Virus record (IMG/VR): IMGVR_UViG_3300031949_000005
Coordinates: 32,001-96,000 of that record
DNA: 64,000 nucleotides
Reading direction: 5' to 3' (one strand)
Origin: a virus
The notes beneath the pieces are model-generated. The model searched no databases, was not told the origin of the DNA, and saw only the letters and a list, made by a program, of their open reading frames with translations. Of the stretch, positions 38,432-64,000 are shown one piece after another. The translations under genes and the position numbers were made by a program. Every line of letters begins with the position of its first letter. Positions within the stretch are counted from its first letter, which is position 1.

Positions 38432-40219
38432 TCTGACTTCTTTTTCTAATCTTCCTTTGGAATGTGTAATCTTATTTGTTCAACCATTTCATATATCAGA
38501 TCTTCTTTTTCTTTTTCTTTTTCTGATAGGAAATTCCAATGTACGCCGTAGGTAAATCCGAGGATAGAAAGAGAGATAAAACCCATTTTACTCAGATTTA
38601 TCCCCAAATCAAAGAAATTCACCAAGAACTCCGTAAAATTCCTTGGAATATCTTTATCAAACTTTATCCTCTTCATTGGTTTAACCACCCCATAGACCAC
38701 ACAAATATCGTGATAGAAGTACTGAGGATGAGGAAAAGGGGCCATTCAATAGTGTGGCCGCGTTCAGCTTTTATAAGAACGAGGGTTAAAAACCAGATAC
38801 TTACGATTAAAGAAGCGATTTTCAAAAACATTTTATTTCTCCTAATCGAATACCCCATATTTAATAATAATAACGGGGTGATTTTCGTCGAGGATGCCTT
38901 CCGTATCCATGTCGGTACTAAAATCGTCTATCGGGAAATATTCCCCGACATCTGCATCATAAATAGTTACGTCCATTCCTAGTGCCTCTTCGCCTAGCTT
39001 CTGAAGGTGATCTAGTAGTCCTTTATACGTCATTTTTAAATCTCCTTAAGAATATATCCATGCTGATCGACTAGAATACCTTGATTATTACATGTCAAAG
39101 TATAAACTCTTGCTGGTCCATTATACTTGCGATTTTTTTAAAATACTGTTTCTTATTTATCATCCGGATTTTCTGTCTAAGATGTGTATTTACGCTGAAA
39201 TCGAAATAATCTCCATCTTGAGATAAAAAATCTTCGCACCAATCGCTAAAACATTGTAAATCACCAACATCAGACGTTGCGTTCATGAGCATTATCATGC
39301 GTGAGCGGGACAATCGGAACGTTGATCCCATATCGAGTTCTCCTTTTGTTACTGACTATCTTATTGGCACCATCTCCTTAGAAATAGGCTTTACCAGTCC
39401 TTGCCTATCTCGCTTTCCCACATGCTTAGTTCGCTCGTTTCCTGTAAATCGTGCTATTCCTTATCCGTAAGGTATGCAAGGCCAGGATCATCAATGCCGA
39501 CTATCATCCGGCCTTCTTGTGTGTATTTTGCATTCGGTGGTACACTACCTATCCATGCTACGTAGGTATCTAGGGTGCCGACAGCACCGCGGTTAAGCGC
39601 CGATCGCATTTTGACAGCCGTTTCGGGATCGGCATTTAATACCCAATCGAGGAATGCGTCAGACACGACTTGCGGTTTGTAGTCTTTGATCCTACGTAAT
39701 GTTTGTGAAAACGCAAATATATCAGCCATTACTTTCTTACCTTTCAACCTAACAAGATAAAGACATGACACACACACACGACATGGTCGGCACCACCCCT
39801 TTAGGGTCGATTTTTCTAAATAAGGTCCTTCGCACAAACATCCAGACTAGCCCTACGCCCCTAAAAACCCACTTTTCCTCATTTTATAGCTCTTTATGGA
39901 CCCTATAATGATGGTATTTTAGTCCCTTAAAAAGCCTGAAATTTGCCAGAAAAAGGCGTTTTTCACGTCAAATAATAGCTAGAAACGCCAATTTCCCGCA
40001 TTTTCGATGGATCATTCCCTATTATTCGTTCAAAAAGACGATCTGTCTCGCCTAGGGATGATACTTCGCAAGCGAAAACTGGAAAAAATACATATTTTCC
40101 TTCAAGAAATTGAGTTTTTGATATGTCTTTGTAGAGAAAAAGCTTCTTTTCCACTAACTTCCTCCTTTTTCTATTCAGAAACATGGTTTTTGTATACTTT
40201 TCACGACTTTTGTGTATAA

Positions 40220-40789
40220 GTGAGTATGAAAAAAACATGGGCAAGAGGAAAGGAGTGGTATCGTCGTCAGAGACTTGCGAGTAATCTATGTATGACATAT
40301 GGATGTAAAAACGATAGGGTAATAAATAGACAAACATGCAGAGAATGCCAAAAGAAGAGCAAGAATTATAGGATTAACAGGTCTATTAAACTTACTCAAC
40401 TTGGTCTGTGTACCAGATGTGGTCAAAATAATTATCTTGAAATATATCAAGACAGAAAGACAAAAACCAAGTTATGTGAACTTTGTTATCTCAAGAGAAT
40501 GGCTTCTCAACACCTTGGTGCGGAGAGTTACTACGTAGATTTGTTAAATCTACTTCAAAAACAAAAGTTCAGATGTGCTTATACTGGAGGTGATCTTGTT
40601 TTAGGCTTAAACGCTTCGTTGGATCATATACTTCCGCGAAAGAAATATCCGGATAAAATCAAAGATATTGATAATCTTCAATGGGTTATTCGTGATATAA
40701 ATACGATGAAATCGGGTTTCGAAGAGGAGACGTTCATTAACCTTGTTACAAAGATGTATCTATATTTAACTAAATCCAATAATTCCTAA
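40220..40789 (+). CDS. HNH endonuclease with Zn ribbons, inverted relative to neighbours
   Basis: CxxC pairs; CAYTG..L....ASLDHILP...NLQWV...IN.MK. Confidence 0.75.
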   Translation: MSMKKTWARGKEWYRRQRLASNLCMTYGCKNDRVINRQTCRECQKKSKNYRINRSIKLTQLGLCTRCGQNNYLEIYQDRKTKTKLCELCYLKRMASQHLGAESYYVDLLNLLQKQKFRCAYTGGDLVLGLNASLDHILPRKKYPDKIKDIDNLQWVIRDINTMKSGFEEETFINLVTKMYLYLTKSNNS

Positions 40790-40793
40790 ATCG

Positions 40794-41201
40794 TTATTTA
40801 CATCCCTTCCTAGCTCTAGGATTCCTGTTTTTGGCTCTTGTCGCCTTTTGACGCATCTTGGCCTCTTGTTCTTGTCTCGCCAACCGTTCCTCTCGGCGCA
40901 ATGGGTCGGAATTTATCGTGCCTATACGAATAGACTCATTGGTGGCCAATTTACATACATTTTTGCGCGGACGACATGCAGTTTTTCTTGACTTGATGTT
41001 CTGACCATCCAATCCCTTGGTTATATTGACGAACGGACGCTTGGTGGTGAAACCATAACGGCCATCTCCGGCGACTTTATCTAAATCACCATTAGATGAA
41101 AACCGTCTACCTCCTTTTACTCTTCGAGTCCACTCTAGTCCGAGCCTGTATGTTTTGAGGAATTTTTTATCCTCTTCTGTCTGGGGTATGTTATAGATCA
41201 C
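40794..41201 (-). CDS. Basic hypothetical protein
   Basis: Start reassigned to GTG at 41201 after SD AGGAG; the ORF-track start lies inside the tRNA. Confidence 0.6.
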   Translation of the reverse strand: MIYNIPQTEEDKKFLKTYRLGLEWTRRVKGGRRFSSNGDLDKVAGDGRYGFTTKRPFVNITKGLDGQNIKSRKTACRPRKNVCKLATNESIRIGTINSDPLRREERLARQEQEAKMRQKATRAKNRNPRARKGCK

Positions 41202-41225
41202 TTGGTTTACTCCTGTTAAAAATAT

Positions 41226-41300
41226 TGACCCCACCCGGATTCGAACCGGGAACCTCGATTTTATAAGAATCGCGCTCTAGCCGACTTGAGCTATGGGGCC
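41226..41300 (-). tRNA. tRNA-Ile(UAU)
   Basis: GGCCCCA acceptor, CGATT-CTTATAA-AATCG, GGTTCGAATCC, discriminator A. Confidence 0.88.
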
Positions 41301-41303
41301 GAC

Positions 41304-41336
41304 TGGACCTCCTGGGAATCGAACCCATAGAGGCCC
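41304..41336 (-). ncRNA. tRNA minihelix (acceptor stem plus T arm only)
   Basis: GGGCCTC-TA-TGGG-TTCGATT-CCCAG-GAGGTCC-A. Confidence 0.65.
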
Positions 41337-41349
41337 ACTTCTTCCACTG

Positions 41350-41991
41350 TTACTGCATTCCAATACCTAGGCCGGACGGTTCATCCCAACGAATATCGCT
41401 TTCGTAGGGACGACGTGATCCACAGACACTGTTGTGATATGCGCCATCACGACTTGGAACAGGATCGTGATAAGACATCCCATCGGGATTTTTCAACGTC
41501 TGCATAATACCCCACCACAGAGCACGCTTTGCGATTTTGTCTCCGGTCCTTATGGCCTGTCGGAGATGCTCATTGTTGAAAATGAGATCGTTGGCACGAG
41601 TCTTAATATCGTACCAGTCGGGTCTAATGATTTGAATATCGACCACAGGCACTGTCGTTGCTCGATAAACAGTCACAACAGACGGATCGTCGAGATAGTC
41701 GTAACTATGATTGCCTATGATGATCCTATCTCCCCGTGATAATTGAGGCGCGATATCCATCTTGAGTTCCATCCGACAGAACTTACAGACTTCCTCGCTA
41801 TAGAGGACGAAGAAGTCATATCTCGTCACGAGAGAGTTCCCACTATCAGAATACGTTTTCGATCCACCAAAGTATCTACTCCCCGTCGGAGTAAATAAGA
41901 ATTTGGGGTGGCTAACGATTCTGTCTAGAATCCCATAAAGAGAATTCTTGATTTCCGGCATGAACGTATCGCTACCATGATAGCTCAACAT
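41350..41991 (-). CDS. Pol-beta nucleotidyltransferase-like protein with an 8-aa insertion in the DxD motif
   Basis: TGSRYFG.....SD[SGNSLVTR]YDFFV, VDIQ. Confidence 0.65.
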   Translation of the reverse strand: MLSYHGSDTFMPEIKNSLYGILDRIVSHPKFLFTPTGSRYFGGSKTYSDSGNSLVTRYDFFVLYSEEVCKFCRMELKMDIAPQLSRGDRIIIGNHSYDYLDDPSVVTVYRATTVPVVDIQIIRPDWYDIKTRANDLIFNNEHLRQAIRTGDKIAKRALWWGIMQTLKNPDGMSYHDPVPSRDGAYHNSVCGSRRPYESDIRWDEPSGLGIGMQ

Positions 41992-42234
41992 GGTGATCCC
42001 CTTTCCGGCGCTATTGCGCCATTGCCTTTTTGATGAAGGAGCACGCAGACATTAAGTCCTCTTCGCCATTAAGAATATTGACGAGGACTTCTCGTTTCCT
42101 AGAGTCGAGTCGGTGTAGAGACACTCCATTAGCCACTTCTTCGATAGCTTCACGGAAGAGTTGGTGTGCGGTTTTTTTCTCCTTTGTCTGGACGAAAGTG
42201 AATTGTCCAGTCTCGTCACGAGAGAGTTCCCACT
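41821..42234. repeat. Exact 24-bp direct repeat TCTCGTCACGAGAGAGTTCCCACT at 41821-41844 and 42211-42234
   Basis: Read directly from the sequence. Confidence 0.95.
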
Positions 42235-42576
42235 CCGAAGCAATGGCTTTTACTATCATCGCCACATCCGGTATTGTTAGCCAGACACGATCGAAATTCT
42301 GGGTTATACTTACACCACCACTAGAATTCTTTGGATCGGAACTTACTTCGAAACCATCGGTGAAGTTATAACTTCTAAGACAATACATCACACAATCTCC
42401 TCTAACGGCCACCTTTTCAATTGCTTGCCGCGCATCTCCGGGTGTGCTTTCCGTAACTCTCGACGCGCCACATTCCTCGTCTTGGTTTGCGGATTACGAT
42501 GCCCCTTCGGATTGTTCGACTTCTTCGATTTTTTATCTTCCTTCGACGACATTTTCCTCTTCCTTTCGTTCGACTT

Positions 42577-42837
42577 TCATGTTTTCTGACTCTCGTGACT
42601 ATGCAGTGAACACAACCTACAAATCATGCCATTTTCATATTCTGCGTGGTCGAAAGATGGCCAGTGACACAATAGACATGGTAAATTGTCAAATCCCGTT
42701 ATCCCCATCTTGTCGGCACATTGACCACATACAAATCCCGCACTGTCTAGAACCGAATGATCATCGTGAAACCCTGTCTCTTCTTCGCATATGATACACG
42801 AAGGCATTACTACTCCGGTTTCTTCGTTAAGAAACAT
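42577..42837 (-). CDS. Cys-rich Zn-finger protein
   Basis: Start reassigned to MFLNEETG after SD AAGGAG; four CxxC. Confidence 0.6.
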   Translation of the reverse strand: MFLNEETGVVMPSCIICEEETGFHDDHSVLDSAGFVCGQCADKMGITGFDNLPCLLCHWPSFDHAEYENGMICRLCSLHSHESQKT

Positions 42838-42863
42838 GGTTGTCTCCTTACGTTTGGGGTTAT

Positions 42864-42935
42864 ATCCCATACTAGGATTTGAACCTAGATTCACCGTGTT
42901 GTCACAGTGCGTCTTACCAATTAGACTATATGGGA
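42864..42935 (-). ncRNA. tRNA-like element with aberrant anticodon arm
   Basis: TCCCATA/TATGGGA acceptor, GTCT-AATTGGTA-AGAC D arm, CTAGG-TTCAAAT-CCTAG T arm; anticodon arm CACTGTG-ACAA-CACGGTG. Confidence 0.75.
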
Positions 42936-42939
42936 TACC

Positions 42940-43835
42940 AGCGTGAACACGCCAGAAGTGGCCACAATATCGCCGACTAATCCGCTTGTCGATTAGTAAC
43001 GAGATTGGTTCGCGGGCCTTTATAGACTAGAAGCGACGATAGATACGACTACCGCGCTACTATTTATTTGTCTCGTGGTGTCATTTCGGAGTACCATCCT
43101 ATAAGGTAAGCGCTAACTCACTCCCATAGGACGTATCGGTAAACTAAGAATTGCTAGACGGTACGGCGCTATCACCAGACCCGATAAGGTTGCGAGGCTT
43201 ACCAGACCCTTAGTTCCGACGCGCTATGGCCTAGGTTTACGGAGTTACACCGACAACCTATCCCCACCACAATTGCACTTATACTGTAACATATCCGACT
43301 AGACTTGCGTTAGATATGTTCGCGCGACAATTCTTATCAGGATTCTCACCGTATAGTCGCGCCATGTCTGATAAAACCATTTCGGTATGATACGATTGCA
43401 GGATAGTTTATTCCGACAAGCGCTATTCGCCACCGAAGCGCCCTTCGGTATTCTTGCTAAGCGCGCGGACTACCTACATCGTCCCATAACTTGTGTGTTA
43501 TCGGACGTATAAGCGTATACCGTTATATCGGCTAACGCGGGAATTATCGGACGCCTAATTCTCGGACCCTCTTCCCGAACTCCGATAATAATTTCGGGAG
43601 TTAGACCCTGCAAACGAACTAGGTCTTATAACGATGTTTCCCTATCGTTGACGGATTAGCGCGGACTATGCGCTCTCCCATTCTTATACAGCCCGATAAT
43701 AGGCCGTAATTCCGCATAAGACGCAACGCGAACAGCGCGTCTATTTAGTCCGAAGTTATCGGACGCATCGAATATGCGGCGAGGCGCGCACTACCGGACG
43801 AGGAGAATCCGATAATGCGCGATTGCGCCGGATAC
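42940..43835 (-). ncRNA. Candidate large structured non-coding RNA
   Basis: ~880 nt with no ORF of 60 aa or more, GC-rich, many consecutive inverted repeats with G-U pairs on the minus strand. Confidence 0.5.
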
Positions 43836-43842
43836 TCTGGTG

Positions 43843-44163
43843 TTACTTCTTGCCGAGCTTTGCGAAGCTCGACTTCAATTTTGACGCACCTTGCCGACGG
43901 TTGAGGATAGCGTCAGCGACACCCGCTCCGTTATCGGAGCCGAAGCCTCGATCCGACGGCGGGGTATATCCCGAACCGTTTTCGGACCATTGCTTCAAAC
44001 TCTCAATCACGTCAAGCGCTTCGGCGATTGCATCCTCTCGCTCATCCTCGGCCTTCAGCGCGATTGCATCGACGAGCTTCTTCGTGTCGGAATACCGACC
44101 AGCATCGTCAAGAAATCGTTGCGCATCGAAGGCGACCTTCGGCTCCATCGTACCAGTTGCCAT
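43843..44163 (-). CDS. Hypothetical early protein (106 aa)
   Basis: SD AAGGAG, own sigma70-type promoter, GC-rich codons. Confidence 0.75.
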   Translation of the reverse strand: MATGTMEPKVAFDAQRFLDDAGRYSDTKKLVDAIALKAEDEREDAIAEALDVIESLKQWSENGSGYTPPSDRGFGSDNGAGVADAILNRRQGASKLKSSFAKLGKK

Positions 44164-44256
44164 AGTAGACTCCTTTAGGAAGCTTCCTATGCGCTACCAG
44201 ACGATAGCACACGCTACCATCCGATAGCGCGTCAAACAAGTTTTTTGCTACATCAT

Positions 44257-44285
44257 ACTATAGCCTCCGGATTGTCAATAGTCAA
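44257..44285 (-). promoter_or_regulatory. Sigma70-type promoter
   Basis: TTGACT-17 bp-TATAGT, with an overlapping TTGACA..TATGAT and an A-rich upstream region. Confidence 0.65.
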
Positions 44286-44745
44286 GAGACTTGAACAAAT
44301 TATTTTTAGGTCTTATAATAAGGCACGACATAGAGTGTATATACAATAATAGTCGTATCCTATAATATATCACACTACTCAACAATAATAAGGATTTTAT
44401 TGACCGCGACCGATAAAAGCGCCCCTCGCGTTATTCCGCTAGTCCTATAATATATCACTTTTCTTGTCATGCTACACCATATTATTAGTATCGTCCTATA
44501 AAACGCTAATCCGATAATATCAAATAATGTCCCCGCGATAAACAGGCTCTTGTGTTATTATAGGATCGGTTCGATAATTGCTCGTAAAATCGCACGCAAA
44601 CATAATGATAATAAGCTAGGTCCGATAATCGCAGTTTTAGTAGTGATTGTAACAATATAGAGAGTTTTTGTCCGATAAAACAATCGGATTTTACCACATT
44701 CCGATAATAAAAAGAAGTGTTAGCGCTAAGGTTTTAAGCCAAAAT

Positions 44746-45990
44746 CTAATCTCGGATACCATGTCCGATAATCCTTCCATTGTATCCCTGTGCTCTTATT
44801 CGTCCGATAAGGCCAAAGAGCGCGTTATCCTTCCCGTCCGCAATATAGGACATACCTTCCAGCGCGTTATCATCGTCAAGGTACACCCGCGCTGTATAGG
44901 TGCCTTCGCCGATATGATCGGTTGCAACATAGAGCATTATAAGACCCTCCTATCCGTCGATGGTTATCGGATTCTTCCGTCCGTCAAGAGCGCGTCTATC
45001 CGCTTCGTCCGGTCCCTTGCGCAATTGCCCATACCATCCGGTCCGTGCTAGATTGTCCGATAATCTCTTCGGCGCTTCGTCCGGATTGAACGTCATTGCG
45101 CACGTACCATAATACTTCGAATGGAACGGTCCGGAAACAAACGCCAGCGTCAGATAACCGATTTGCTCGGTCTGGTAATTGAGAGTTTTCCGGCGCTTGA
45201 TTCTGGCAAGTATGGCTTCGCCGAAGGCAATTCGATACTTTGCACGTCTGATAATTGCTCCCACGATTCTTCTCCTTTATCGGACCAACTGAAGTTTGTT
45301 CCAATAATCCATTATTTCCGCTGCGCGGCTCCATCCTACAGGAAGCATAAGGTTATCGGTCGCGTGGGGTTCCCTGGTTTCGATAACCCTTCCGCCCCAT
45401 AAACTCGTGATATATCGGACCGCCGGTTCAACGTACGTTATCGGTACAATCATGTACTGGTTGCGCCTAGGCCCACGTCCTAGGCCGTCCCTATACGTAA
45501 TGAGAACCCGTTGTATGTACCCCATTGTACGCTCCTCGCTACCGATTGTCAAGCGGGAAAAACCGAACCTGTACCCCATCCGGTCCTATATCGTACGGAC
45601 CAATACAATGTCCAATAACTCCTTGAACGTCCGTATCCTCGACCCATTGTCCGTCCGATAAAAGAACCCGGTCACGTTCCGATAAGAAACCGTTGGCTAG
45701 ACCGATAATTGTTTCGGTGTGGTTATCGACACTAACGATGTCTCCAATACAGACTATCATTACCGGACTCCTTGCAGTGTGCTAACCCGTAGATTACCGG
45801 ACACACTGTCATATCCGATAACCTTGCTCGTACCGTCCGATAACGTAACCAGCACAGGCCCATCATCGTCCGATAGCGTATAAGCCGCCGTACGTCCGCT
45901 TGCCAGTGCCACCTCGTCCGATAACCCCTCGTAGAAGCTCGGTCCGATATTCTCCGAACCGGGGATATACAGTCTAGTTGTACCGAACAT
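44746..45990 (-). CDS. Run of five small GC-rich hypothetical genes (44746-44937, 44950-45264, 45277-45579, 45539-45760, 45760-45990)
   Basis: Tightly packed, strong GGAG/GGAGG SDs before most. Confidence 0.65.
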
Positions 45991-46002
45991 TGAAGCCCTC
46001 CT

Positions 46003-46074
46003 TTACGTTAACTCCCACCATACCTTGGCCAGTCCCATAACCACCATCGCCACGGCTAGACCGATAAGTGTCAT
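46003..46074 (-). CDS. 23-aa transmembrane peptide MTLIGLAVAMVVMGLAKVWWELT
   Basis: Manual translation; starts immediately after the upstream stop. Confidence 0.5.
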   Translation of the reverse strand: MTLIGLAVAMVVMGLAKVWWELT

Positions 46075-46075
46075 A

Positions 46076-46216
46076 TTATCGGCCTTCACAATCGTTGTTA
46101 TCGGAACACAAGAAGTAACCGCCCGATGGTCCGAGAACACCAACACCCTCTTCCGTCAGATAAAACTTGCACCCGCCGCACGCCAGCAACAAAAGTCCCA
46201 TAAGTAAACGTTTCAT
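46076..46216 (-). CDS. 46-aa putative lipoprotein MKRLLMGLLLLACGGC...
   Basis: SD AAGGAGG; basic N-terminus, hydrophobic stretch, lipobox-like Cys. Confidence 0.6.
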   Translation of the reverse strand: MKRLLMGLLLLACGGCKFYLTEEGVGVLGPSGGYFLCSDNNDCEGR

Positions 46217-46231
46217 CGTACCCTCCTTTTG

Positions 46232-46357
46232 TTATCGTCCGTACCGATTCGTTGCCAATCCGAAGGCATTGAAAACCAGTCCGATAGTTGCTAGTGCCAT
46301 AACCATCGCCCCGATGTAAAGCCCGTTGTTCGTTAGTAGGTTAATGATCGTTTCCAT
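46232..46357 (-). CDS. 41-aa membrane peptide METIINLLTNNGLYIGAMVMALATIGLVFNAFGLATNRYGR
   Basis: First ORF after the promoter; SD-like AAGGGACAGGA. Confidence 0.6.
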   Translation of the reverse strand: METIINLLTNNGLYIGAMVMALATIGLVFNAFGLATNRYGR

Positions 46358-46406
46358 TGTCCTGTCCCTTCGTTATAAGCCCTTGTTATCCCCTTACCAC
46401 GAGTAT

Positions 46407-46435
46407 ATTTTAGCATACCGATCGGCAAGAAGCAA
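46407..46435 (-). promoter_or_regulatory. Sigma70-type early promoter
   Basis: TTGCTT-17 bp-TAAAAT with extended -10 TG and upstream A-tract. Confidence 0.7.
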
Positions 46436-48126
46436 GCCCGAAGGAAAGAATCTTTTTTTAGTCCGATAAGTTAAGATAGGTAGGATAGTCTGATAAATAG
46501 AAGATAGATATATAGTCCTATAGCTTAGTCAAGCTAGGTTCCGATAAGTATAGTATGATGATAGATAGGTTATAGGAGCTTAGCATAGATAGTCTGATAA
46601 TTGGAGGTCCGATAAGGGGAGTGGGTATTTTATGTTATCGGAGCAAGGCGGAAGGAACGTCCGAAAACGCGGGGGCCTGCATTCGCACCAAGACCCCAAA
46701 ACCCATCCATACTATAAAATCGGATCACTTGTTTTTATCTAAAGCTCCATGGCCTCATATCACAAGAAAATTTTAAAGAACATCTTGGCTGTTGCTATAT
46801 TGGTATGAGGTTTAGCGGTCGGCGCTCTTTCCAGGGATATCACGACTAATACTCGTGGTATTCCAATTGTCTTGGGGAAAATATGTCAGCAATCATGCCT
46901 ATATTGGTTTCGTTAACAGTATCAATAACTGTCTTAATGACATATTATTATTATTTGAAAGTATTATATTCCAAAATTGATATAAGACATAAATTATCAG
47001 ATTCTTTTTTCAAATATTGGTCAATAGACAAATTTGCAAAAGATATTGTTAGATTAAAACGATTTAAAGATTTAAGAAATTATATAGAAGATAATTACAA
47101 GTGGGAAATTTGTCACTTTCAGAAAATGAATGACGATCTTGAACATATATTTTATATTAAAAAGAATACGGTATTATCGTGTCCTTTCCCTATCAAACCT
47201 GATAATTATAGCAATATGCAATTATCTTTATTTATAGCCCATATATTAATCGAAGAGAATTTAATTTTTACTGAATTCTATCAAAATTTCGTTGGTTATT
47301 TAAACAGGAGAAAACATTGAAGCAAATAGAAAAGAAAAAACGAGTCTTTAAAACCATTACGAAAGAAGATGATAGACTTTACGCCAAAAATGAACTGATT
47401 TGCCCAGAATTATTGGACGAACTCCACGATACGGTCGAGGAACTTAACTTTCTCTGTCGTGCTAATACTCCTGTAAAAGATAAAGGATACAGAATAGATA
47501 AAAAACAAAAGAACCAATTGTGTAAAACAATATCCTCAACTTTAAAGGAGATTTTTGAACTATGAGTAATTATTTAATAGAAGGTATTATCGGAACATTA
47601 ATGGGAGAATACGGAATTGTTAAAGTTCTAGAAATAGTTGATGAAAAATCATATCATCATATAATACACAAGGGTATTAAAAATACAATATTAGAATTTA
47701 ATACGTATAACAAAAATTTACCAAAACTAGATCATACATCCTGTTCATGCCCTGGTTGTACTGGTCGTGGATAAAATCATGATAACTTATACGAGAGAAA
47801 AATTTTGTCGTGTATGTTCTCCTATTTTAGAAGATTTTGGTCAAGGTATAAAAATATCTTGTCAGGCTACTTTAAATAAAAAATATTGTGATTTTAATAT
47901 AAGTGATTGTTATGTATTTTATAAAGATATAGTAGAATATTACAAAAAACTAAAATCCTTTTACACGAGAATAGGAGACATGGATTATGTCAATAAATTA
48001 CCAGATGTAGAAAAAATTATAAAACGTGTCTGTTGTTTTTATCAGCCGACAAATGCTACTAATAAAGAAATATATGATGATGTTGTAGTGAATATAGAAT
48101 TATATAGTTAATAAAAGGAGAAATAT

Positions 48127-62602: not shown

Positions 62603-63101
62603 ATTATGTATTCCTACATATACTGTTCTTAGAGATTCCAGAGAGAAAGAAGGACATGGATGGGAATTTAAACAACATAAACCAGAAAAGCGTCCACCGA
62701 GATGCGAAGGAATGATTATTAGTACACTTAAAACAGGAGATTATTCTCTTTTGAATTATGAAGATCTTTTAGTTATAGAGAGAAAACTTGATTATTCAGA
62801 ACTATGGGGTAATTATGGTAAAAGAAAATGTTTTGAAGAAGAATGTGAACGAATGCAAAGTATTAAATATAGGTATATAATTATAGAATCTCATTTAACC
62901 AGCGATGTGCTTAGTCTCTCTCCACCACAATTTTCAAAGGGTGTACCAGGACGTGCGTTAATTAGCTGGCTTTGTAATTTATCTTTATCATATGGCGTAC
63001 ATATTATTCCTGTTGGATCTTGTGGTAAGAAATATTGTCAATTAATCTTTGAAGAAGTGGTCAGAATAGAAAGAGATAGATGGACAACAAATGACAACTA
63101 A
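62589..63101 (+). CDS. ERCC4-family nuclease
   Basis: DSREK, LKTGDYS, IERK. Confidence 0.85.
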   Translation: MFMSRLCIPTYTVLRDSREKEGHGWEFKQHKPEKRPPRCEGMIISTLKTGDYSLLNYEDLLVIERKLDYSELWGNYGKRKCFEEECERMQSIKYRYIIIESHLTSDVLSLSPPQFSKGVPGRALISWLCNLSLSYGVHIIPVGSCGKKYCQLIFEEVVRIERDRWTTNDN

Positions 63102-64000
63102 AAATATTATAACATTACAAGATTTAATGGAAGGAGACGAAGGTAAGTACGCATATTTATTTCCTTATAGAGATCGTATACCGGAAGTACAAAATCATAT
63201 TTTTTCTGATATACAAAGATATAATCAAAGTATGGATAAAATAATTATTTCTAATATGTTAAATATTGATTATATCGGATGGACAGCTAAAGTTCTTCTT
63301 GGATTAGATCTCTTTCCTATTCAAATAGCAATGATTCAGACTTTATGGAAAACTCCTTTCCCTATGGTTGTAGCAGCAAGAGGAGGAAGTAAAACTTTTA
63401 CTCTTGCTGTTTATGTTGTATTAAGAGCATTATTAGAACAAGGAACAAAAATTGTTATCATTGGAGCAGGATTAAGACAAGCAAAATTAGTTTTCAATTA
63501 TATAGAAAATATATGGAATAATTGTTCTGTTCTAAGAAGTATAGTAGGTGGTGGGAAAAAAGGTGGACCAAGACAAAATGTCGATTTATGTTATTTTAAT
63601 ATTGGGGAATCTAGTGTTGTGGCGCTGCCTTTAGGCGACGGCTGTGCTTCAAAAAATACAGCAATAACTTATTTTGATAGATTTGGTACTATATCAGATT
63701 ATCAACCTAATCATATTATTGATAAAAATATTATAAAAAGAAATGAATCAGTTTGGGGAAATGGGAATTTTAATATATCTGATGAGTCCTATTGTAATGG
63801 TTTGCAAAAAACTAAAAAAATAAAAACCCATAAAGGATTTGAATTTGAAGCTACCCATAATCATAAACTTAAAATTTTAAGAAACCATGAGATAATTTGG
63901 ACACGTATGGATGAAATGCAAATTGGTGATAAAATTTTAATAGATAGAACACATAGGTGGCATAATGGTAATACAAATATAGAAAATGAAGAATCTTATG
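63091..64000 (+). CDS. terL: Terminase large subunit (partial, intein-containing)
   Basis: Manual translation: L.P.Q, AARGGSKTF (Walker A), GAGLRQAK, ALPLGDG. Confidence 0.8.
   Translation, partial: MTTKNIITLQDLMEGDEGKYAYLFPYRDRIPEVQNHIFSDIQRYNQSMDKIIISNMLNIDYIGWTAKVLLGLDLFPIQIAMIQTLWKTPFPMVVAARGGSKTFTLAVYVVLRALLEQGTKIVIIGAGLRQAKLVFNYIENIWNNCSVLRSIVGGGKKGGPRQNVDLCYFNIGESSVVALPLGDGCASKNTAITYFDRFGTISDYQPNHIIDKNIIKRNESVWGNGNFNISDESYCNGLQKTKKIKTHKGFEFEATHNHKLKILRNHEIIWTRMDEMQIGDKILIDRTHRWHNGNTNIENEESY
63643..64000 (+). mobile_element. Intein in terminase (N-terminal splicing part)
   Basis: PLGDG|CASKNTAI (block A), KIKTHKG.EFEATHNH (block B TxxH), W..MDEM..GDKI. Confidence 0.85.

Follow-up and report, generated by a model that had tools for sequence, protein, structure and literature searches.

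A probable gene for a ~900-nt multidomain non-coding RNA behind a conserved 106-amino-acid protein gene in a clade of uncultured phages

We analyzed a stretch of 64,000 nucleotides (nt), hereafter the window, that comprises bases 32001-96000 of a 167,640-bp uncultured virus record. Positions 42937-43839 of the window, read on the minus strand, are very probably a gene for a structured, multidomain non-coding RNA of about 900 nt, which represents a divergent subtype of an uncatalogued family of 0.9-1.0-kb phage RNAs. This family is carried by a clade of uncultured phages with genomes of 140-180 kb. Directly upstream of the RNA lies a conserved gene for a protein of 106 amino acids (aa; 43843-44163, minus strand), which was recognized by tblastn, by profile search and by its adjacency to the RNA. 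We refer to the genome that holds the window as G000 and to the contigs of its relatives by L-numbers.

The stretch is non-coding. No open reading frame (ORF) of at least 50 aa is present on either strand between positions 42937 and 43842, and stop codons interrupt all six frames, with 10-21 in each frame, bearing out the ORF-free stretch reported in a preliminary description of this DNA. The length of about 880 nt given there is revised here to about 903 nt (42937-43839), while the tRNA-like neighbor that it placed at the 3' end is real. Coding by stop-codon reassignment was rejected, since reassignment of a single stop (TGA, TAG or TAA) opens at most 126 codons within the stretch. Comparison with a close relative likewise led us to reject a conserved small ORF. 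The relative is ENA contig L111, of which two shorter identical contigs exist; it encodes a 58%-identical homologue of the 106-aa protein, and about 1 kb without a called gene follows the homologue's gene. The longest ORFs of G000 in the stretch, of 47 and 44 aa, are absent in L111, and the 78 substitutions that separate the two sequences show no codon-phase bias (26/26/26 by codon phase). Since the codon phases are evenly hit and the longest ORFs are not kept, the constraint on this stretch is not coding.

We then consider the fold. The minus strand folds at -338 kcal/mol, compared with -291.5 +/- 6.8 kcal/mol for dinucleotide-shuffled sequences (z -6.85), and the plus strand at -284 kcal/mol, compared with -260.5 kcal/mol for its shuffles (z -3.83). 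The difference between these two z scores indicates structure that is beyond chance and strand-specific. Folding no better than that of dinucleotide shuffles had been put forward earlier as an outcome that would speak against an RNA, and the minus-strand value decides this point in favor of one. All six hairpins named in the preliminary description occur on the minus strand and form in its minimum-energy fold, namely GUCCGA/UCGGAC, UACGGCCU/GGGCUGUA, UCCCGAA/UUCGGGA, ACCGAAG/CUUCGGU, GCGCGAC/GUCGCGC and AACAUAUCU/GGAUAUGUU, and the two internal repeats it listed (families D4 and D16) are also present.

The structure is conserved in L111. The RNA stretch aligns with L111:495-1402 at 91.3% nucleotide identity, uniformly along its length (86-94% per 100-nt block), compared with 64.7% for the 106-aa gene, 69.3% for a zinc-ribbon gene, 74.9% for a 146-aa gene and 85.1% for tRNA-Ile. 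In a pairing test, the fold was predicted from G000 alone and the substitutions found in L111 were permuted among like bases in 2000 permutations. On the minus strand, 28-29 changed pairs remained standard pairs and 9 were broken, where the null expectation was about 22 kept and 25 broken, and none of the 2000 permutations matched this degree of pair preservation (P<0.0005). The same test on the plus strand gave 9 pairs kept and 24-25 broken, which equals the null. Four pairs were changed on both sides between G000 and L111 (P about 0.02). Conservation on one strand only, achieved through G-U pairs, is a signature of RNA and not of DNA.

Further relatives were reached through the portal-like protein of this phage, which has homologues at 48-59% identity on 67 IMG/VR contigs, 14 of them longer than 100 kb. 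Seven distant relatives have, directly past the 106-aa gene, a stretch of 0.9-1.0 kb with 64-77% nucleotide identity among them and no shared ORF. RNAalifold on these seven sequences gave 220 pairs, 95 of which carry a compensatory double change. Covariance models of the 5' part (R1), the 3' part (R2) and the center (R3) were built from the seven relatives, without G000 and L111, and each domain was evaluated against a slid control in which the pair partners were moved by 1-3 columns. For the 5' domain (alignment A6, 10 sequences including G000 and L111), 91% of the alignment cells are paired and 11 of 26 pairs are changed on both sides, with 30-50% paired in the slid control. The center (alignment A10, nine relatives) has 93% of its cells paired, 25-52% in the slid control, and 17 of its 56 pairs are changed on both sides. 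The 3' domain (alignment A7, 10 relatives) is the third: 95.7% of cells are paired, 34 of 42 pairs are changed on both sides, and the covariation score is 0.688 against at most 0.08 in slid controls. A lack of covariation was another outcome that had been named as speaking against an RNA; the pairing-preserving substitutions relative to L111 and the abundant compensatory changes in related phages show the opposite.

R1 and R2 both match in 14 contigs, always right after the 106-aa gene. R3 is weak in G005 and G017 (22 and 18 bits), from which it follows that the center varies within the RNA family. The divergent contigs L129, L130 and L131/L132 also have ORF-free gaps after the 106-aa gene, and in these R1 matches weakly, at the 5' stem only. 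Two of the gaps, L129:2843-3900 and L131:634-1527, span about 0.9-1.06 kb without a gene behind divergent copies of the 106-aa gene; in sequence they resemble neither RNA subtype, and they may be additional ones.

The place of the RNA of this window within the family was determined with the same models. The best R1 match in the window is a full-length match at 43746-43839 on the minus strand (19.2 bits, E-value (E) 0.028 in 324 kb and 0.015 in 176 kb). It begins at 43839, 4 nt past the stop codon of the 106-aa gene (43843-45), on the expected strand. R1 also gives a full-length match to L111:495-590 at 22.5 bits, with the exact syntenic start. These scores are modest, and they gain weight from the exact position and strand. 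R2 did not match the RNA of this window with default filters; with filters off, its best match within 40000-47000 is at 42935-43094 (minus strand), full-length and colinear, with a low score of 9.7 bits, and a terminal hairpin lies in the equivalent place. For R3 there was no colinear match to this RNA even with filters off. Searches by primary sequence were negative: BLAST and nhmmer comparison of the stretch with 19-20 relatives gave nothing significant, a profile hidden Markov model (HMM) of the relatives' RNA (alignment A3) found nothing in this genome, a profile HMM of G000 and L111 (alignment A2) found nothing in all loci, and an alignment of G000 to the main family was not achieved with MAFFT. 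By eye, two blocks are common to G000 and the family, GACACCACGAGAC with the family's GACACGACACGAC, and AGUCUAUAAAGG in G000 versus AGUCGUUAAA.UAAGG in the family. A long-range helix is also recognizable by eye, in which UUGUGGUGGGGAUAGG with GACACCAC stands opposite the family's UUGUCGUGGGAUAGG with GACACGAC and a C-G pair is swapped to G-C. Because R1 matches, R2 matches weakly and R3 does not match at all, we conclude that G000 and L111 carry a divergent subtype of one family, in which the 5' stem is conserved, the 3' domain usually so, and the center changes fast.

Three domains can accordingly be delimited in the RNA, all on the minus strand. The 5' domain (43746-43839), which corresponds to the full-length R1 match, is a long irregular stem closed by GAGUAUC...GCAUAUUC and followed by the hairpin GUCCGA-UAACU-UCGGAC. 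The central region (43095-43745) has no R3 match and is subtype-specific, with many local hairpins, several of which are built on the word UCCGAUAA/UUAUCGGA; it shows compensatory changes relative to L111, for example at columns 75/118, 105/111, 393/408 and 638/658 of the A2 alignment of G000 and L111. The 3' domain (42937-43094), where R2 gave its low-scoring match, consists of a helix GAGAC/GUCU(A), a GGCC-closed stem and the terminal hairpin GGCGUGUUCACGCU.

Linkage between the RNA and the 106-aa gene is tight. The RNA follows this gene on the same strand in 14 relatives with a strong R1 match and in L111, L129, L130 and L131 with a weak one, and in 19 of 19 contigs with an R1 match it starts 1-50 nt past the stop codon. 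The 106-aa gene itself was found in 14 relatives by tblastn among the fetched loci (30-58% identity), and a profile search among 1.84 billion proteins returned 72 clusters at 50% identity. Its product belongs to no Pfam or PHROG family. The conserved part is the C-terminal half, with the pattern GYTP...LGFGS-NAA-IA..ILG.R...G..RK.F...GK. A structure model shows a four-helix protein with a predicted local distance difference test (pLDDT) score of 79, for which a Foldseek search of the PDB gave no match at an E of 0.001 or better. The invariant adjacency, which is the sole basis for assigning a role, makes the 106-aa protein a candidate partner of the RNA or a candidate co-transcribed cistron. 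Upstream of its gene, at 44257-44285 on the minus strand, is a sigma-70-like promoter candidate, TTGACT-17-TATAGT, with 10 of 12 consensus matches; it is a pattern match only, and the sigma-70 consensus may not be the promoter type of the host. No terminator-like site was found on the minus strand between this promoter candidate and the tRNA-like element. Co-transcription of gene and RNA followed by processing would be the simplest reading of this arrangement.

The same arrangement bears on an alternative, in which the stretch is a long folded 3' untranslated region (3'-UTR) or a spacer of an early polycistronic transcript and acts in cis, by stabilizing the 106-aa mRNA, by organizing processing by RNase III, RNase E or RNase P, or by regulating downstream genes, instead of being a free, trans-acting RNA. 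In every genome examined the gap after the 106-aa stop codon is so short that it leaves no space for a promoter of the RNA's own, no terminator-like site parts the RNA from the tRNA-like element and the downstream genes, and the 5' stem right past the gene is the element best conserved across subtypes. However, an RNA of about 900 nt, with several domains and more than 200 covarying pairs, goes far beyond what known stabilizers and processing sites require, its conservation greatly exceeds that of the gene it would serve (91% versus 65%), and the abutting tRNA-like element would free the RNA as a separate molecule. We therefore regard a purely cis-acting region as unlikely.

The tRNA-like element abuts the 3' end of the RNA at 42863-42936 on the minus strand. 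ARAGORN reports it as 'tRNA-???', and it matches the Rfam tRNA model (RF00005) at 47.9 bits, compared with a gathering score of 29. It folds into a cloverleaf (z -5.2), in which an ACAA tetraloop on a 7-bp stem takes the place of the anticodon arm; ARAGORN reads a 4-base 'acaa', to which no amino acid is assigned. A 7-nt anticodon loop with U33 and a readable anticodon, kept in relatives, is not found in this element. In the L111 copy (L111:1403-1498), the T arm is identical to that of G000 and the acceptor stem carries two compensatory changes (UCCCAUA/UAUGGGA to UCUCGUA/UGCGAGA); the D/anticodon part has been replaced and is 22 nt longer, and this copy is not called as a tRNA. In tRNAs, it is the acceptor and T arms that RNase P, RNase Z and CCA-adding enzymes recognize. 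Selection confined to this half fits a substrate of any of these enzymes, and the element is probably an RNase P/RNase Z processing signal rather than a decoding tRNA.

There are precedents for signals of this kind: the mascRNA element of MALAT1 is a tRNA-like 3'-end processing signal, and the tRNA region of phage T4 gives tRNA-punctuated transcripts. As in mascRNA/MALAT1, a long non-coding RNA ends directly at a cloverleaf with intact acceptor and T arms, where RNase P cleavage would make the mature 3' end. Unlike mascRNA/MALAT1, the cloverleaf is limited to one subtype of the RNA family. Most relatives' RNAs end in a hairpin with no adjacent tRNA, and elsewhere in the family a tRNA lies close to the RNA solely in G007/L125 (tRNA-Asp, 70 nt away), so the tRNA-like end belongs to the G000/L111 subtype. 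In another relative, G003, L100:9799-9894 is a 96-nt match to the tRNA model (39.8 bits) that ARAGORN does not call; the length of this match implies a long insertion or an intron-like segment.

From these features we infer the following course for the RNA. A promoter ahead of the 106-aa gene would drive a joint transcript of gene and RNA. RNase P would generate the 3' end of the RNA by cutting at the 5' edge of the abutting tRNA-like element, and a cleavage close to the long 5' stem, which begins immediately past the stop codon, would generate the 5' end. Once released, the RNA would act in trans as a stable folded scaffold, and the 106-aa protein may join it in a ribonucleoprotein, as is suspected for GOLLD and ROOL. 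A processed, stable and trans-acting scaffold or ribonucleoprotein is in our opinion the most likely mode of action.

The RNA gene sits in an early region covered with copies of the word GTCCGATAA (CCGATAA/TTATCGG). Of the 58 copies in the genome, 34 lie at 43181-46641, seven of them inside the RNA gene; these seven copies, part of an array of 33-34 that continues upstream of them, were a feature absent from the preliminary description. The array at 43181-46641, in the form (G)TCCGATAA, is dense and in both orientations, with copies also inside small early genes. Relatives have the same word array, in one cluster per genome, and in relative G010 nine tandem copies with a 23-bp period, each with TCCGATAA, stand at the contig start (contig bases 5-198). 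The word is identical to the XerC arm of the Myxococcales dif site (PMC2731167). At 43480-43507 is a 28-nt imperfect palindrome, CGTCCCATAAC-TTGTGT-GTTATCGGACG, formed by two inverted word copies with a spacer of 6-8 nt; it has the layout and length of a Xer core site, is identical in L111, and forms a hairpin in the RNA. The word often pairs with its own complement in the RNAs: in the main subfamily this gives the nearly invariant helix CCGAUAGU/GUUAUCGG (helix 4), and in G000 the pairings UUAUCGGA/UCCGGUAG and GUCCGAUAAC...GUUAUGGGAC. L111 departs from G000 in two of the seven word copies, with the structure around them kept. The word may occur in the RNAs because of constraint on the DNA itself, because one protein recognizes it in DNA as well as in RNA, or because the RNAs pair with early transcripts.

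The array raises the question of whether the stretch could be mainly a DNA-level element, that is, part of a replication origin or of a field of binding sites like Xer-recombinase arms, with an RNA structure that is only a by-product of inverted word copies. Such an element would account for the seven copies within an array that holds the majority of the genome's copies, for the conservation of the array across the clade, for the match to a XerC arm (PMC2731167) and for the inverted pair of 28 nt, and the cumulative GC skew turns near 46.2 kb. However, it leaves unexplained the one-strand conservation through G-U pairs (28 versus 9 on the minus strand, 9 versus 24 on the plus strand) and the compensatory changes in dozens of helices that lack the word, as well as the finding that word copies change between G000 and L111 while structure stays. 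We consider it very unlikely that the stretch is mainly such an element, but DNA-element and RNA roles could exist side by side.

A related proposal is that the RNA is a replication pre-primer, like ColE1 RNA II or the transcripts at the R-loop origins oriF and oriG of T4, whose 3' end would hybridize to DNA and, after processing, prime synthesis. The RNA is long and folded, like RNA II, and it adjoins a repeat-rich region near a strand switch and the turn in GC skew; however, its 3' end abuts a tRNA-like element and not an A+T-rich or G-rich R-loop site, and its structure is far more complex than that of known pre-primers. To a pre-primer role we give even less credence than to a mainly DNA-level element.

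Known RNA classes were searched with cmscan against Rfam 15, at E up to 10 on 42700-44000, at the gathering score on the whole window, and at E up to 1 on four relatives and L111. No Rfam 15 family matches the RNA, GOLLD (RF01998) and ROOL (RF03087) included, even with permissive filters, and at the locus tRNA alone matches, which is the outcome of the Rfam check that the preliminary description had proposed. A group I or II intron, RNase P RNA, tmRNA and 6S RNA were rejected, as none had an Rfam or ARAGORN match. The suggestion made earlier of a large RNA, possibly of a new class, is thus supported by the fold, the covariation and the missing Rfam match.

GOLLD is a structured RNA of about 0.8-0.9 kb in phages and prophages, often beside or fused to tRNA genes, with a conserved terminal domain and a variable remainder (bioRxiv 10.1101/2024.12.08.627333). 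The RNA described here resembles it in its phage origin, its size above 800 nt (about 903 nt), its location near tRNA genes and its modular conservation. Unlike GOLLD, it is not matched by covariance model RF01998, it always stands behind one conserved 106-aa gene, its 5' stem and, in most members, its 3' domain are conserved around a variable center, and it holds copies of a word that also covers neighboring early genes. Phages and prophages also carry ROOL, a large ornate RNA located close to tRNA islands, for which neither a protein partner nor a function is known (bioRxiv 10.1101/2024.12.08.627333). Although our RNA is likewise a large ornate phage RNA near tRNAs, model RF03087 does not match it, ROOL is shorter (about 0.6 kb), and ROOL is not described as tied to a particular protein gene. 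A highly divergent, undetected member of GOLLD or ROOL would agree with the similar size, the phage coding, the position beside tRNA genes and the conserved terminal domains with a variable part (bioRxiv 10.1101/2024.12.08.627333), but not with the failure of Rfam 15 to match at E up to 10 in this window and up to 1 in the four relatives and L111, and we attach next to no probability to it. A survey of structured RNAs in IMG/VR described candidate motifs of 29-151 nt (PMC10690425). Those candidates share with our RNA their source in IMG/VR phage contigs and a covariation-based logic; unlike them it is about 900 nt long, and they could cover fragments of it at most, so the survey does not describe the RNA as a whole.

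Several points weigh against the interpretation of the stretch as a divergent member of a family of free RNAs. We infer the expression of the RNA and its ends from sequence. The tight placement behind the 106-aa gene also fits a cis-acting 3'-UTR, and the word copies inside the RNA could be under DNA-level constraint. The G000 subtype consists of two sequences, hence the number of only four double compensatory changes. Its link to the main family is made by weak scores (19-22 bits for R1 and 9.7 for R2), with no match for R3 or the sequence profiles, and the center of the G000/L111 RNA could be a replacement rather than a diverged homologue. Finally, a tRNA or tRNA-like neighbor is present only in G000 and L111, and near the RNA in G007/L125, and is not a family-wide trait.

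The genes near the RNA stretch are on the minus strand, with tRNA genes (Leu, Arg, Lys, Glu, Ile and one odd) interspersed; the region at 33.8-42.9 kb holds six tRNA or tRNA-like genes, counting the element that abuts the RNA. Among 50,697 phage records, blastn gave no match to the stretch and tblastn none to the portal-like protein, for which no cultured relative was therefore found. A search for related loci with four neighboring proteins returned none, and exact 23-mer scans of viral and metagenome contigs gave no match. Directly past the tRNA-like element, at 42577-42837 (minus strand), is a gene for an 86-aa protein with weak zinc-ribbon-like matches (DUF4428, below cut-off); the protein is 70% identical in L111, and a word search with it returned itself alone. 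Farther away, L002:92-3454 (95091-98453 of G000) is a 1120-aa ORF in which matches to the terminase large subunit are interrupted by HNH/endonuclease-like matches, which suggests an intein or a homing-endonuclease insertion; the first 910 bases of this ORF are positions 63091-64000 of the window.

To our knowledge, few bacterial or phage RNA classes besides ribosomal RNA come near 1 kb, namely GOLLD, ROOL, OLE and HEARO, two of which have reportedly been shown of late to build RNA-only cages; GOLLD and ROOL self-assemble into homo-oligomeric cages. The question of what giant phage RNAs do can be approached independently in an unrelated family of this size. What is new here is the divergent subtype, its tRNA-like end and the link to the 106-aa gene. 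Over the known classes, the family adds a location in the early region and a fixed protein-gene neighbor, which is a directly testable candidate partner. The tRNA-like 3' end of one subtype, which suggests a route for release of the RNA, and the embedded copies of a word that also covers the neighboring genes are likewise new relative to those classes. The alignments of the relatives contain enough covariation to guide structure determination. More speculatively, the RNA may represent a new class of giant RNA that forms a ribonucleoprotein with the 106-aa protein and whose conserved UCCGAUAA/UUAUCGGA helices and hairpins imitate, or pair with, the GTCCGATAA words of the early genes, so that it would serve as a decoy, sponge or recruiter for whatever reads the word, be it a Xer-type recombinase-like factor on DNA or early transcripts. 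We think this improbable as a whole; if true, it would tie a giant RNA to the control of the early region.
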